Shown piece by piece: positions 5,601 through 53,913 of a DNA stretch of 64,000 nt (positions are counted from its first letter, which is position 1; every line of letters starts with the position of its first letter). Under the pieces are notes generated by a model. It saw nothing but the letters and a program-made list of their open reading frames with translations. It was not told the origin of the DNA and did not search any database. A program made the translations under genes and the position numbers. Source of the DNA: Promethearchaeota archaeon (GTDB taxonomy: Archaea; Asgardarchaeota; Lokiarchaeia; Sigyniarchaeales; SOKP01); the NCBI GenBank assembly GCA_048939995.1, contig JBHLOY010000007.1, positions 1 through 64,000 of the forward strand. The letters run 5' to 3'.

Positions 5601-5706
5601 TGGGAGAGGGGGGATTCGAACCCCCGACCCCTAGGTTTTTTGCTTTCGTACAATAGGTTTACGTAAGACCCAAACCTAGAATCATACCAAGCTAGACCAC
5701 CCTCCC
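5601..5706 (-). tRNA. tRNA-Pro(UGG) with a 32-nt canonical-position intron (5637-5668)
   Basis: Reverse complement gives acceptor GGGAGGG/CTCTCCC+A, D arm, anticodon stem CTAGG/CCTAG, loop TT-TGG-G^A, T arm GGGGGTTCGAATCCCCC. The intron forms a BHB (UUUG/CAAA central helix). CCA is not encoded. Confidence 0.95.
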
Positions 5707-44818: not shown

Positions 44819-45352
44819 TCATTTAAATCCATATTTTCCAACATGAAGAATTATTTCTTTTGCTAACAATTTAAAAGCTATATCTATATTTTCTCCGGTC
44901 TTACTAGATATTCTTAAATATTCAAAAAAGTTATATTTTTGCATAAATTCGAATATAAAATCACCAGAAAGCATAATTGATTCCTTCAAGTCTGATTTTG
45001 AGCCAATAAATAAAATGGGTAAATCAGGATTTTCTGTTCTGCATACATCCACCCACTCTCCTATTTTTTCTAAGGTAATAGGCCGGGTGGGATCAAATAA
45101 TAAAAGAGCCCCTTTTGCCCCTCTAGCATAATTTTTAAGAAGAAAGCGAAAGCGTTCTTGACCTCCAAAATCCCAAATTTGTAAAATAATTTTCTCATAA
45201 TCAAGCTCTATAGTTTTTAAGAAAAATTCAACACCAATTGTCATTTGCAAATTTTCAATGAATTTTCCTTCAATATACCTATGAAGCATTGTGGTTTTCC
45301 CAACTCCTCCATCTCCAGCAATAATTGTTTTAAAAACTTTCGGTTTGGACAT
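44819..45352 (-). CDS. Rab-like small GTPase
   Basis: GDGGVGKT, TIGVEF, LQIWDFGGQERFR, G4 variant SKSD, SSK. Confidence 0.93.
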   Translation of the reverse strand: MSKPKVFKTIIAGDGGVGKTTMLHRYIEGKFIENLQMTIGVEFFLKTIELDYEKIILQIWDFGGQERFRFLLKNYARGAKGALLLFDPTRPITLEKIGEWVDVCRTENPDLPILFIGSKSDLKESIMLSGDFIFEFMQKYNFFEYLRISSKTGENIDIAFKLLAKEIILHVGKYGFK

Positions 45353-45434
45353 TTAAAAGCACTTTTATTGTATGATTATTAAAATGGCTACTTCATTATT
45401 TGAAATATCAAAAAGTATTAAATTTTTTCTTAAT

Positions 45435-45866
45435 TTAATCAAAAGTTAAATATTTTTTCTGCCTTAGAAAAATTGTGCTAATTCCCAACCTTTTCACTTC
45501 CTTTCGTAGCTTAGAATCATTCGTGGCCAAAAAAACGCGCCACTTTTTTTCTTTTAAGTTAATACACTGCTTTATTAAAAATTCATCCGTAGTTTCAGAT
45601 TCCAATTTTACTTTATTCTTAATTTCAATATGAAATCTCTCTTTATTTGACTCTAGGTAAATTAAACTTGATTTTAGTTCCGTTTGAAATTTTGACGTTG
45701 TTGACTCACGCCTACTTTTTGCTTCTAATTCATCTAATATTTGTTTGTATATAATAAAACATGTTTTACCTTCAATCTCTAAGCAAATTTCATTAAAGTA
45801 ATCGATTTTAAATTGAAAAGGAAGTAAAATGAAGTTAGAATCAATAACAACTACATTATTAAACAT
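45435..45866 (-). CDS. PIN-domain ribonuclease, Fcf1/Utp24-like
   Basis: VVIDSNF.L.PFQF.ID, ELE, TD, LATND..L motifs. Confidence 0.85.
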   Translation of the reverse strand: MFNNVVVIDSNFILLPFQFKIDYFNEICLEIEGKTCFIIYKQILDELEAKSRRESTTSKFQTELKSSLIYLESNKERFHIEIKNKVKLESETTDEFLIKQCINLKEKKWRVFLATNDSKLRKEVKRLGISTIFLRQKKYLTFD

Positions 45867-45880
45867 TTTACAAATTAGAA

Positions 45881-46402
45881 TTAAAATATCTGTTTTTCTA
45901 ATATTCTTTTTGTTAATAAGTCAAAAGCAAATTTTACATTTTCTCCAGATTTGCTCGAAACTCGTAAATAGTCAAATAAATTAAAATCGCTCTTAAAATT
46001 CAATGCATATTCATCATTAACCATAATTTCATCCTGTAAATCGTTCTTTGTACCTAAAAATAAGATTGGAAGGTTTGGATTCCCCTTTCGACAAATATTA
46101 ACCCACTGTTCTAGATTTTCAAGAGTTATAGGGCGTGTTAGGTCGAACATAAGCAAAGCACCTTTCGCTCCTAATACATAACTTTCCAGCAAGAATCGAA
46201 AACGTTCCTGGCCTCCAAAGTCCCAAAGTTGGAGCGTACAATGTTGGCCGTCGATCTCAATCTCTTTAAGGAAGAATTCGACTCCGATCGTCATTTTTGT
46301 CTCAGCTGAAAACCTTCCTTCAACATAACGATGTAAGAGTGTTGTCTTACCTACACCTCCTTCTCCAGCTGTCAGGATCTTAAGTATAAATTTTTTAGGC
46401 AC
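45881..46402 (-). CDS. Rab-like small GTPase
   Basis: GEGGVGKT, TIGVEF, LQLWDFGGQERFR, G4 variant TKND, SSK. Confidence 0.93.
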   Translation of the reverse strand: MPKKFILKILTAGEGGVGKTTLLHRYVEGRFSAETKMTIGVEFFLKEIEIDGQHCTLQLWDFGGQERFRFLLESYVLGAKGALLMFDLTRPITLENLEQWVNICRKGNPNLPILFLGTKNDLQDEIMVNDEYALNFKSDFNLFDYLRVSSKSGENVKFAFDLLTKRILEKQIF

Positions 46403-47102: not shown

Positions 47103-48758
47103 ATGGAATCTATTGAAAGCAAACTTTTTGGGTCAGAAGTAAAAATAAAAGACTTTTTTAATAACATCCCTATTCCTTCCTATGTCTGGCAAAAGGTAAA
47201 AGATAATTTTATCCTTATTGAATATAATACTGCTGCTGAAAAAGCTACAAATGGCGCGATAAAAAATTATTTGGGTGAAAAAGCCTCTTTCTTCTATGAA
47301 AATAAACCTGAGCTTGTAAAAGAGTTACAAAAATGCATAACAGAAAAAAAAGGTAGTGTAAAGGAGTTAAAATATACGACGAAAACTACTGGTGAAGATT
47401 TATATTTATCAATTAGATATTATTTTGTAGCTCCAGATTTAGTAATACTTCACACAGAAGATATAACTAATCGAAGAAGAATTGAAAAAGAATTAAAAAG
47501 ATCAGAAGAAAAATTCAGACATTTATTCCAACATTCACCATACGCAATCATCCTAGTTGATTTAATGGGTACAATCTTAGACTTTAATGATTCAACTACT
47601 AGATTATTTGGTTATGAAAGAAATGATTTAATAGGGAAAAACTATCTGCAATTAACAATGTATCCGGAAGAATTTGTCACTATCCTTAAAGCAAGATACA
47701 AAAAAGCATTAGAAGTCGAACTTTTAGAGCCTATTGAACTTAAAATTACCAAAAAAAGTGGTGAAGAGGCATGGGTTCTCTCTAATTTGTCAATTCTTAA
47801 ATTAGGGAAAAAAAAACTATTACACTCAATAATTAATGATATTACAGAACAAAAAAAATTTGAGAAAACAATAAAAAGAAAACTAGAGATTGAAAGATTC
47901 TTATCTACCATCTCTTCTCGATTTATAGGAACTATTGATATAGATATGACTATTAATTTGTCATTAATAGAAATGGGTCGATTATTAGAAGCGAACCGTG
48001 CGTATCTACTATTATTTAACGAAGAAAATTCATTAGAATTTTTTACTCAGCAATGGTGTATCGAAGAAATTGAACCGCAGCATTTAGAATCAATAGTTAT
48101 ACATATTGAAAAATACCCTTGGTGTCTTAATCAGTGCAAAAATCAAGGATTTGTTTATATCCCCGATACGTCAATGCTTCCTGAAGAAGCTTTATCAACA
48201 AAGCAACGGCTAGAAACTCTACAAATAAAATCTTTTTTGGCTTTTCCTGTAATGATAAAGGGGGAATTATTTGGATTTATAGGATTTGATAATATAGAAA
48301 AAATGAAGACTTGGAATAAGGAAGACTTTTCTCTACTAAAGACTTCCTCTGAAATTATTGGAAGTGCATTAGAACGTAAATGGGCTGAAGAAACGCTAAA
48401 AAATAGTAATCAACTATTAGCTGGAATAATTTCTTCGTTAACGGATCCTATATTTTTAATTGATAAAGGTTTTAATATTCTCTGGTGTAATAATGTAGCC
48501 AAAAACAAATTTGGCTTAGAGTCTATCGGAAATAAGTGTTATGAGGTTTTAGTTAAAAATGAAGAGAGGTGTAAAAAGTGTATTGCAGAGAAAACCTTCT
48601 CTGACAGCAAAATCCATGAGCGGGAATTAAATTTAATTGATGTTAATGGGAATGTTTTTATAGCATGGTGTACTTCCAGTAGTGCAGCTCAAAATCTCGA
48701 AGGTAATACAGAATTAGCCGTACTAATTCTTAGAGATCTGACTACAAAAAAATCTTAA
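47103..48758 (+). CDS. PAS-PAS-GAF-PAS sensor protein without a kinase domain
   Basis: PAS/PAC ends (EDIT.RR, DITEQKK, RDLT), GAF FGFIGFD...W; the protein stops right after the last PAS. Confidence 0.85.
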   Translation: MESIESKLFGSEVKIKDFFNNIPIPSYVWQKVKDNFILIEYNTAAEKATNGAIKNYLGEKASFFYENKPELVKELQKCITEKKGSVKELKYTTKTTGEDLYLSIRYYFVAPDLVILHTEDITNRRRIEKELKRSEEKFRHLFQHSPYAIILVDLMGTILDFNDSTTRLFGYERNDLIGKNYLQLTMYPEEFVTILKARYKKALEVELLEPIELKITKKSGEEAWVLSNLSILKLGKKKLLHSIINDITEQKKFEKTIKRKLEIERFLSTISSRFIGTIDIDMTINLSLIEMGRLLEANRAYLLLFNEENSLEFFTQQWCIEEIEPQHLESIVIHIEKYPWCLNQCKNQGFVYIPDTSMLPEEALSTKQRLETLQIKSFLAFPVMIKGELFGFIGFDNIEKMKTWNKEDFSLLKTSSEIIGSALERKWAEETLKNSNQLLAGIISSLTDPIFLIDKGFNILWCNNVAKNKFGLESIGNKCYEVLVKNEERCKKCIAEKTFSDSKIHERELNLIDVNGNVFIAWCTSSSAAQNLEGNTELAVLILRDLTTKKS

Positions 48759-49315
48759 CCAAATCTCTGTTTATCTCTATACTCTTTAACTGAAATATTC
48801 CTTTCAATTATTCTATCATTTTTAATGAGGGTTTCTTCTATCGCCTTGACCTCTGCTCGAGTGCTTACTTTTCTTTTTTGAAGTTCTTCTAAAATTTCTT
48901 TTTCTCCCAACCCTTTTTTATAAAGTTCTTTGAATTTTTCAATTATTTGACTATTGTAAAATATATATTGCTTATTTAAAAAAATAATTAACCAACTTTC
49001 CTTACTTTGTTTTTGGGATAATTTAAACATCTTTTTTTGTATGTCTTCATACTTCTTCCTAAGTATTCTCGAGATTGTTTTATCATCTATGGTGTTCTGG
49101 TTTTTCAGAAATCGTTTTAACTTATTACTAAAAAATAAATCTGGAATATATGATAAACCATACAAGATTAATGTAATTATAGTCATCCAGATACCTGCTT
49201 GAAGATTGAATATGGCAACAATTATAATAATGATAATAAGCATCAAGAACCATTTCCTTCCAATCGATTTTAAAATTATTGTTAAATTTTTTGGCATATC
49301 TCCACATTCAGTCAA
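48755..49315 (-). CDS. Hypothetical membrane protein (N-terminal TM hairpin)
   Basis: Hydrophobic N-terminal helices and a basic soluble domain. Likely start is the MPK ATG at 49297. Confidence 0.7.
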   Translation of the reverse strand: MTECGDMPKNLTIILKSIGRKWFLMLIIIIIIVAIFNLQAGIWMTIITLILYGLSYIPDLFFSNKLKRFLKNQNTIDDKTISRILRKKYEDIQKKMFKLSQKQSKESWLIIFLNKQYIFYNSQIIEKFKELYKKGLGEKEILEELQKRKVSTRAEVKAIEETLIKNDRIIERNISVKEYRDKQRFG

Positions 49316-49396: not shown

Positions 49397-49402
49397 AAAA
49401 AA
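49397..49402 (-). terminator. Oligo-U tract just downstream of the permuted 5S precursor
   Basis: U6 on the minus strand, 3 nt after the 3' arm of the 16-bp stem; typical archaeal terminator signal. Confidence 0.4.
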
Positions 49403-49405
49403 GTG

Positions 49406-49591
49406 TTTTAACCACAAAAATTTTAGCGTTTCTGGGTTCAGATGGGACCAGGTATTTTCCTGTTTTACCATGACCGTAGCCTAAGCCACAGTTAGAAAGT
49501 TCCCACAAATCTCAATTGCAGTACTGATTTCAACGCAAAACAGTTTAACTTCCAGCGCATTACGATATGGATATGATTTTTGTGGTTAAAA
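49406..49591 (-). repeat. Perfect 16-bp inverted repeat (49406-49421 / 49576-49591) enclosing the 5S unit; predicted precursor processing stem
   Basis: TTTTAACCACAAAAAT ... ATTTTTGTGGTTAAAA. Confidence 0.9.
49430..49549 (-). rRNA. rrf: 5S rRNA, circularly permuted gene (3' half 49549-49485, UUAG linker 49484-49481, 5' half 49480-49430)
   Basis: 5' half: GCUACGGUCAUGGUAAAACAGGAAAAUACCUGGUCCCAUCUGAACCCAGAA, with the loop C CCCAUC.GAAC signature. 3' half: GUUAAACUGUUUUGCGUUGAAAUCAGUACUGCAAUUGAGAUUUGUGGGAACUUUCUAACUGUGGC, with loop E AGUA/GAA. Helices I, II, IV and V pair as in 5S, and helix III completes across the predicted junction. Confidence 0.88.
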
Positions 49592-49769
49592 AATCCATTA
49601 AGACCATCTTATAAGCTTGGCTAACTTTTCTCAAAATAGCTTGCTTATATGGTTTTAAGTAAATAGAATTAATAAAAGCTACTAATTAAATTTTATTATT
49701 ATAAACCATTAAATTTAAAAGCTAAAGTTCAGAGTCTGTTATTATCTAGAAGAACTCCGTCTATTAGAG

Positions 49770-52347: not shown

Positions 52348-53913
52348 ATGACACTAAATTTAGAAGATATTTCTGGAATAGGTAAGGCTACCGCTGAACG
52401 GATGAAAGCAGCAGGTATAGACTCAGTCGAAAAGTTAGCTTCCTGTAAACCAGAAGATCTAACAAAAATTAAAATTAAAGGCGTAGGGACATCAACAGCA
52501 ATCAAATATATTGCTAATGCAAAAGAATTATTAACTTCTAAGGAGAAACAAAAAGATCAACCTGCAAAAGAAGAAGGACCACAAGAAACCGAAACAAAAG
52601 TAGAGAAAGCACCTACTAAAAAGTATTCTCCCGAAAAAGCAAAGGAACTAGAGAATTTAATAAGACAACAAGCTGAATGCAACATTGGTTTAGTCGGGCA
52701 TGTAGATCACGGAAAGACTACATTAGTTAAGTCACTTACTGGAGATTGGACAGATAGGCACTCCGAGGAAAAAGAGAGAGGAATATCGATTAAATTGGGT
52801 TATTCTAACGCAACTATACTATACTGTCCTGAATGTGATGAATATCTCACATCATACATGGCACAAAAAGATCGCAAAAAAGGGGAACCTTCCTATAGTT
52901 GCAGAAGATGCGAAGGAAGTTTAATATTTAAAAGAAATATATCATTTGTTGATGCTCCTGGACACGAAATACTGATGGCTACAATGTTAAGTGGGGCTTC
53001 TTTAATGAATGGAGCTTGTTTACTTATTGCCGCTGATGAAACATGTCCTCAACCTCAAACTCGAGAACATCTTGCTGCTTTAAATATTGCGGGAATTGAA
53101 AATGTAATTATAATTCAGAATAAAATTGATGCTGTATCTAAGGAACAAGCATTTAAAAATTACCAACAAATTAAAAAATTCCTTAAAGGAACACCTATAG
53201 AAAATGCACCCATATTACCTGTCTCAGCAGTATTTAGTGCAAATATTGATCTTGTAGTCAAAGCGTTTGAAGAAGTAATTCCAACGCCAGAATTAAGTAA
53301 TGAGGAAGCATTTGAATTTTTAATAGCTAGATCGTTTGACATTAACAAACCAGGTACAGATATAAGTAAATTGAGAGGCGGAGTTATTGGAGGATCTGTT
53401 CTAAAGGGAAGAATTAAGGTCGGCGATGAGATAGAAATCAGACCAGGGATAAGAATTAAAAATAGTTATTCTCCTATTAATTCGAAAATAGTCAGTATAA
53501 GTCAAGGAATGAATCTATTGAATGAAGCTAAACCTGGTGGTTTAATTGGTCTAGGAACAAAATTGGATCCAGCATTAACTAAAGGAGACTCATTGATAGG
53601 GCATTTAGTTGGAATTCCAGGCACATTACCGGATGTTATTTCAGAGGTTGAGCTAAAAGTCCATTTACTTGAAAGAGTTATTGGTTCAGAGATGCAAATA
53701 AAAGTAACAGAACTTAAGCATAATGAAAAGTTATTACTGGTTGTAGGTACAGAGAAAACTGGGGGGACGATAACAAAAATTCTCAAAAATTCTTATATAT
53801 TACAACTAAACCCTCCAATTTGTATTCCCAGAGATTTTATCTTTGCAATCTCACGAATAATAAATCGAAGGTATAGGCTGATAGGTTATGGAGAACTAGT
53901 TAGCGCTAATTAA
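52348..53913 (+). CDS. eif2g: Translation initiation factor aIF-2 gamma with N-terminal helix-hairpin-helix extension
   Basis: NIGLVGHVDHGKT, RGISIKLGY, Zn knuckle, DAPGHE.LMATMLSGA, PQPQTREH, QNKID, RSFDINKPG, R.RLIGYG. Confidence 0.96.
   Translation: MTLNLEDISGIGKATAERMKAAGIDSVEKLASCKPEDLTKIKIKGVGTSTAIKYIANAKELLTSKEKQKDQPAKEEGPQETETKVEKAPTKKYSPEKAKELENLIRQQAECNIGLVGHVDHGKTTLVKSLTGDWTDRHSEEKERGISIKLGYSNATILYCPECDEYLTSYMAQKDRKKGEPSYSCRRCEGSLIFKRNISFVDAPGHEILMATMLSGASLMNGACLLIAADETCPQPQTREHLAALNIAGIENVIIIQNKIDAVSKEQAFKNYQQIKKFLKGTPIENAPILPVSAVFSANIDLVVKAFEEVIPTPELSNEEAFEFLIARSFDINKPGTDISKLRGGVIGGSVLKGRIKVGDEIEIRPGIRIKNSYSPINSKIVSISQGMNLLNEAKPGGLIGLGTKLDPALTKGDSLIGHLVGIPGTLPDVISEVELKVHLLERVIGSEMQIKVTELKHNEKLLLVVGTEKTGGTITKILKNSYILQLNPPICIPRDFIFAISRIINRRYRLIGYGELVSAN

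Follow-up and report, generated by a model that had tools for sequence, protein, structure and literature searches.

A circularly permuted 5S rRNA gene of Asgard archaea, probably matured by tRNA-type splicing

Can a gene whose two halves stand in swapped order supply the 5S rRNA of a ribosome and, if so, in what form? This question is raised by a gap between a peptidase C25 gene (49770–51911) and a membrane-protein ORF (48755–49315) in the genome of a Promethearchaeota archaeon (GCA_048939995.1; hereafter referred to as G000), which is 98% complete by markers and has its 23S gene unassembled. All positions refer to the window, namely the whole stretch of 64,000 nucleotides that was analysed (contig JBHLOY010000007.1, positions 1 to 64,000). 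Elsewhere, the window encodes an aIF2-gamma with an N-terminal helix-hairpin-helix domain (52348–53913, plus strand; HHH_5, E 3.6e-10) and, as judged from translations, a PIN-like ORF (44819–46402, minus strand) between two small Rab/Ras-like GTPase ORFs. Within the gap, the minus-strand sequence 49549–49430 is a circularly permuted 5S rRNA gene, in which the 3′ half, a UUAG and the 5′ half follow each other as listed below.

49485–49549, minus strand: 3′ half of the 5S rRNA, encoded first (helix III end, 3′ strand of helix II, helix V, loop E, helix IV, 3′ strand of helix I)
49481–49484, minus strand: UUAG tetraloop, which links the native 3′ and 5′ ends and caps helix I
49492–49485 with 49480–49473, minus strand: helix I pairing under the UUAG cap
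49430–49480, minus strand: 5′ half of the 5S rRNA, encoded second (5′ strand of helix I, loop A, 5′ strand of helix II, loop B, helix III, loop C, AA bulge)

A first reading, made from the sequence alone (hereafter referred to as the sequence-only reading), had assigned the order of the halves, the UUAG linker, helices I, II, IV and V, loop E and loop C, all of which are present in the sequence at the positions claimed. It had placed the break at the AA bulge of helix III, and the alignment with the Rfam model RF00001 puts it directly 3′ of this bulge. The five helices and loops A–E form a three-way junction, and every helix shows compensatory changes; across 20 genomes, the helices were 90.2% paired, double changes had occurred in 25 of the 33 pairs, and none of 500 shuffles was as good. 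Compared with the Rfam consensus, loop C of this gene lacks one base and carries a C-to-U change (shared with genome G010). Single-sequence folding, with a z of −1.45, was set aside as stand-alone evidence.

Finders of linear rRNA genes had been expected to miss or split the gene, and so they did. The Rfam scan of the genomic order gave no match at the cut-off (38 bits, the gathering cut-off of RF00001), and RF00001 aligned with the 5′ half alone at 20.7 bits, a sub-threshold score that is expected for a permuted gene and is the top RF00001 match across the whole of G000. An HMM derived from ordinary linear 5S genes gave 14.3 bits with the genomic order versus 36.0 bits with the re-ordered sequence, and matched none of 200 shuffled controls. 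With an HMM of archaeal linear genes only, the corresponding values were 17.4 bits (positions 4–52) versus 47.7 bits (positions 4–117); in the whole genome, the linear archaeal 5S profile matched only the two halves of this locus, with their order swapped. A permuted covariance model, trained on 25 permuted genes from families other than the window's own, matched 49430–49550 over all 124 positions (71.1 bits, E 1.6e-14). Rfam scans of the window and the locus gave no match to mtPerm-5S, the model of the permuted mitochondrial 5S of stramenopiles.

We considered whether the locus might be a pseudogene or stem from an assembly artefact, such as a cDNA of a chance circle, with a normal 5S gene doing the work. 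A search for a conventional gene found none, 49549–49430 being the sole 5S-like locus in the assembly; the rRNA operons of G000 are unassembled, so that a linear 5S gene could be absent from the assembly, and one bin of the same genus (G015) contains a linear 5S. The latter (L043, G015:C263) was rejected as a contaminant, probably of plastid origin, because it follows a bacterial-type 23S and adjoins a LysR/RbcR-like gene that is only 27% identical to anything in G000. The compensatory changes in all helices argue against a pseudogene, as do the closed genomes that have no other 5S and the finding that, of about 115 genomes in the family, most carry a single copy.

The same arrangement had been predicted for related Asgard genomes, and a survey of 151 of these revealed it in about 97 (at least 40 bits with the permuted model), a linear gene in 49 and neither in 5. 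Leaving aside the contaminant of G015, none of the 151 had both forms. With a first draw of genomes counted in, permuted genes occurred in about 23 families, at least one locus of each being inspected, and linear genes in five (f2, f12, f15, f17 and f27). Most genomes of the window's genus and family had one permuted copy, the single-contig genomes G061, G072, G083, G086, G097 and G118 had permuted copies only, and two single-contig genomes (3,081,793 and 3,326,783 bp) had two permuted copies each. The Heimdall records CSMAG_1090 and AB_125 were permuted as well; for the closed genomes of Heimdallarchaeum (3.08 and 3.32 Mbp), it has been stated that 5S genes ‘could not be predicted’ (PMC8813620). 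In 151 genomes of a non-Asgard archaeal phylum (that of a Nitrososphaeraceae genome), the best 8 hits, on inspection, were all ordinary linear genes. A loose pattern scan of GTDB returned, among the matches listed, mostly ordinary bacterial 5S genes and chance matches, the permuted ones being Asgard only (L088, L119 and L155). Finally, an independent 1072-nt contig (run X5, record 6) spans the gene and both flanks. An artefact or a pseudogene is thus already contradicted by the RNA contigs, the helix covariation and the survey, and is barely credible; we regard it as practically certain that the locus is a real, functional permuted 5S gene.

How could the break in helix III be repaired? The sequence-only reading was right about the permuted gene but overlooked two features of the flanks that would supply the mechanism, a BHB-type motif and a 16-bp processing stem. 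A BHB motif is cut after the second bulge base on each strand, and the cuts listed here follow this rule.

49549–49558, minus strand: 5′ strand of the splice motif (outer helix GCG, 49558–49556; central helix CUGG, 49555–49552; bulge AA^G)
49426–49435, minus strand: 3′ strand of the splice motif (central helix CCAG, 49435–49432; bulge AA^A; outer helix CGC, 49428–49426)
49550/49549 and 49430/49429, minus strand: predicted cuts
49576–49591, minus strand: 5′ arm of the processing stem, a perfect 16 bp (100% complementary) that clamps the precursor
49406–49421, minus strand: 3′ arm of the processing stem, which pairs with 49591–49576

The leader CUGG pairs with CCAG (4 bp) and GCG with CGC; these pairings leave a 3-nt bulge and keep the register of the junction. 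The inner helix is absent, which makes this a relaxed (hBH) form of the BHB motif described in PMC4731332. Cutting and joining as the motif predicts yields a 120-nt ring in which the consensus of helix III is restored and the 5S HMM score rises from 17.4 to 47.7 bits. The flank pairing covaries across 20 genomes (90.6% paired, double changes in 7 of 9 pairs, none of 500 shuffles as good), controls in which it was slid were at most 45% paired, and random flanks would produce an in-register motif with a chance of 3.6e-4. The BHB-constrained fold lies 2.8 kcal/mol above the minimum-energy fold. Relatives have similar arms of the processing stem.

Further elements lie outside the stem.

49603–49654, minus strand: leader hairpin 5′ of the processing stem, conserved across the genus (alignment of 16 genomes), a probable part of the primary transcript, without an Rfam match
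49683–49697, minus strand: A-rich BRE-like stretch and TATA-like box TTTAATTA, conserved in the upstream alignment
49397–49402, minus strand: U-tract 3′ of the stem, a candidate archaeal terminator

Archaeal promoter spacing would make 49683–49697 the gene's own promoter, with a start near 49660, and the conserved TATA-like box, the leader hairpin and the U-tract together suggest a stand-alone transcript. A sigma-70 promoter scan was set aside as inapplicable to archaea.

The enzymes and binding proteins that such a route would call upon are encoded in G000. Its two EndA paralogues are a catalytic type, which has the catalytic His motif, and a structural type, which lacks it; on their sequences we class the pair as the heterotetramer type, the one called most relaxed (PMC4731332). 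RtcB, uL5 and uL18 are encoded as well. ARAGORN reported introns in 15 of the 25 tRNA calls, which suggests that the splicing machinery is in heavy use. The window itself contains an intron-containing tRNA-Leu gene (5601–5706, minus strand).

We propose the following course of maturation. A precursor of about 260 nt would be transcribed from the gene's own promoter, and its leader and trailer would pair via the 16-bp stem. The leader CUGG would then displace the internal strand of helix III and pair with CCAG to form the relaxed BHB (hBH), a structure shown by the covariation. The tRNA splicing endonuclease would cut each bulge 3′ of its second base, and RtcB would join the ends, both enzymes being present and their action here presumed. 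The product would be a covalently closed RNA of 120 nt with the normal helix III sequence back in place, the junction of which occurs in RNA-library contigs. With its tetraloop-capped helix I, this ring would bind uL5/uL18 and serve as the 5S of the 50S subunit. We consider cutting and ligation of the precursor at the motif very probable, and put the likelihood that the closed ring is the ribosomal form of 5S at roughly three in four.

The junction between the CCCAGAA and GUUAAAC ends, which had been predicted from the sequence, is present in RNA-library contigs from two studies. Two sediment metatranscriptomes (X1 and X2) each contain a 150-nt contig (120 + 30) that is confined to the gene, has the 49549→49430 joint with 37 letters on its short side and differs from the window at one or two positions; the difference common to X1 and X2 is the allele of G010. 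Both contigs begin at 49466 and finish at 49437 and so overlap themselves by 30 nt, as is expected when 31-letter words close into a cycle. Words across both the junction and the UUAG linker thus exist in RNA libraries. The same back-turn, as a loose end, is made by a third contig of 150 nt, which stems from a more distant relative. Contigs of X3 and X5, runs without a recorded library type, cross the gene ends into the genomic flanks and have no joint; the missing flank cover in X1 and X2 is no more than a weak hint. These contigs show that a unit of about 120 nt is expressed, as RNA of near relatives of G000 and in a form that carries no ends, strand or levels. Library preparation favours circles, since rolling-circle cDNA passes size selection and a linear RNA of 116 nt may not, and a closed assembly cycle could arise from two differently nicked linear forms.

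The sequence-only reading had left two forms open, a closed 120-nt ring and an RNA reopened at UUAG; the ring has come out as the better supported and reopening as the less so. If the ring were a mere intermediate, reopened at the helix I loop or another loop, the ribosome would carry a linear 5S. There are precedents in the circles from the permuted tRNA genes of C. merolae, reopened at the linker (as cited in PMC4267664), and in the 23S of P. furiosus, reopened at helix 98 (PMC7758197, as summarised in PMC12918454); moreover, the library bias would hide a short linear product, and the linker varies from 3 to 6 nt in some families. On the other hand, the RNA contigs run unbroken through the linker, and in most cases this linker is a UNCG loop of extra stability, on a stem of 7–13 bp. 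Among 89 permuted loci, many of which are kin, 46 have UUCG as the cap and 56 have UNCG. A UNCG loop is a poor nuclease target and lacks tRNA-like recognition elements, which counts against reopening. E. coli ribosomes still work when helix I bears a connector of 4 nt (PMC7283268), and this, together with the UNCG-type cap, indicates that reopening is neither needed nor favoured. We therefore consider a reopened, linear ribosomal 5S unlikely.

Another conceivable outcome is that the precursor is cut at the motif and remains mostly unligated, the ribosomal 5S being permuted and nicked in helix III and the contigs representing a minor ligated by-product or template switching. The brown-algal mitochondrial 5S does function as an open permuted molecule (PMC4267664), the RT-PCR validation of minor 5S circles of Sulfolobus failed (PMC3326292), and the 3-letter (GAA) microhomology at our junction makes template switching by reverse transcriptase formally possible. 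Such a nick, however, would sit in the domain that binds ribosomal proteins (PMC4267664), and all three RNA contigs have the 120-nt period. The register that exactly restores the consensus on joining is a further argument against it, as it holds even where the break lies in loop C or loop B; its retention after moves of the break point is expected only if the ends are joined. An unligated ribosomal 5S thus appears distinctly improbable, even less likely than a reopened one, and the closed ring remains our preferred reading.

The moves of the break point were seen in comparison of the permuted loci, those with introns, nested or truncated (e.g. f10, G005 and G020) having their motifs read by eye. 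At the AA bulge of helix III, the break occupies three registers; elsewhere, it lies at the border of helix III and loop C in G016, G023, G032, G035 and genus g18 (L031/L055, L048, L049, L290, L226, L227, L229, L234 and L293), and in loop B in G038 (L045). The shift to the helix III/loop C border occurs within one genus and family. Wherever the break lies, it has its own in-register motif, a 4-bp helix with bulges of 3 nt, and joining the ends gives back the consensus. Several 5S genes have, in addition, inserts of 29–31 nt with full BHB motifs, the removal of which restores the insert-free sequence.

L006:1470–1711, L007:1465–1706 and L030:1446–1685: loci with inserts in helix IV
L226: locus with an insert in loop D
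L014, L015, L021, L023, L024, L027, L028, L029 and L216: loci with inserts in loop C

By their sequences, these inserts are candidate 5S rRNA introns at no fewer than three, that is, at least three, sites; we found no report of archaeal 5S introns in the literature. An origin of permuted genes from intron-containing genes by tandem duplication and loss has been suggested for SRP RNA (PMC4731332), and 5S genes with BHB introns would fit such an origin of the permuted 5S. In the loci L186–L197 (Heimdallarchaeaceae-like, f10) and L047 (G043), a conserved leader hairpin of about 25–30 nt lies between two candidate splice strands, the first with a long outer helix and the second with the consensus-restoring cut, as read by eye; this suggests two-step processing of a permuted gene whose junction contains an intron. 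In the permuted 5S of L235 (G154), the helix I strand is longer by about 31 bases, which form a further hairpin, and no clear BHB was found there; the linear 5S genes L222 and L223 (f12), of about 150 nt, have an insertion 3′ of helix II, in which no convincing BHB was found.

The closest parallel is the SRP RNA of Thermoproteus tenax and T. uzoniensis, which is permuted, circular and matured via a BHB (Plagens et al. 2015, PMC4731332). There too, a universal structural RNA had a seemingly missing gene, with its halves swapped and a BHB formed by leader and trailer; the ends are joined by EndA and RtcB, which re-creates a protein-binding element at the junction, and the mature RNA is a circle, the same route that we propose for 5S. 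The window's gene shares with it the 3′ part before the 5′ part, the linked native ends, the in-register 4-bp helix and 3-nt bulge in a relaxed hBH, and a ligated junction that restores a conserved sequence (in the X1 and X2 contigs, with the 3-nt ambiguity). The Asgard case differs in concerning a ribosomal RNA, in extending over about 23 families of a phylum versus one genus, in the several moves of its break point, and in that cleavage is deduced here rather than established biochemically.

Although no described permuted 5S rRNA gene was known to the sequence-only reading, brown algae and other stramenopiles have a permuted 5S in their mitochondria (Valach et al. 2014, PMC4267664; model mtPerm-5S). 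Its helix I is likewise a closed hairpin, with the gene ends relocated. The mitochondrial ends, however, are open at the alpha/gamma three-way junction, the product is linear and no splice motif was reported, whereas the Asgard break lies inside domain beta (helix III) and is sealed. Permuted tRNA genes, as in Cyanidioschyzon merolae (Soma et al. 2007, as cited in PMC4267664), resemble the Asgard 5S gene in that the 3′ half comes first, a BHB forms at the junction and the splicing machinery makes a circular RNA; the tRNA circle is reopened at the linker to give normal ends, whereas the 5S linker is a conserved stable tetraloop through which the contigs read. Archaeal 16S and 23S rRNAs are also excised from a processing stem with a BHB and ligated, and circular 23S has been reported inside ribosomes (PMC12918454; PMC7758197). 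Their genes have the normal order and their junctions lie outside the mature core; in the Asgard 5S, the core sequence itself needs ligation. Thermofilum pendens, an archaeon, has circularly permuted tRNA genes. In E. coli, an engineered cp5S with its native ends joined by a 4-nt connector, as here, functions in the ribosome (PMC7283268); this artificial RNA has its opening in loop C or loop D and is part of a fusion with 23S, not a free ring. The minor circles of Sulfolobus came from normal 5S genes (PMC3326292), and 5S rRNA has been stated not to use the BHB route of circularisation (PMC12918454). In our literature search, which fell short of most subscription papers, no report of a permuted or ring-forming 5S gene of archaea was found; the archaeal spliced form thus appears to be unreported.

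The permuted order accounts for 5S genes having seemed missing from Asgard archaea, close relatives of eukaryotes. In a single-gene RpoB tree (FastTree, partly masked, unrooted), the linear families appear in four places, which, weak as this tree is, hints at one early origin of the permuted 5S with reversions to the linear form. Our joint reading is that a closed, spliced 5S dates back to the common ancestor of Asgard archaea and is the normal form in most of them, that its break point moved several times, that BHB introns were gained and that the linear form was regained in a few families; we offer it tentatively, as somewhat short of an even chance. As part of this tentative reading, since genomes of the Heimdall group are permuted, the linear, Pol III-transcribed 5S of eukaryotes could descend by reversion from a gene that encoded a ring. 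In most of the phylum that is nearest to eukaryotes, a universal part of the ribosome, assumed to be linear, would depend on splicing of the tRNA type. The permuted covariance model provides a ready annotation fix for missed 5S genes, and permuted versus linear 5S a new phylogenetic character for Asgard archaea and eukaryote origins. The permuted 5S may also offer a natural experiment on the importance of free 5S ends in the assembly of ribosomes.
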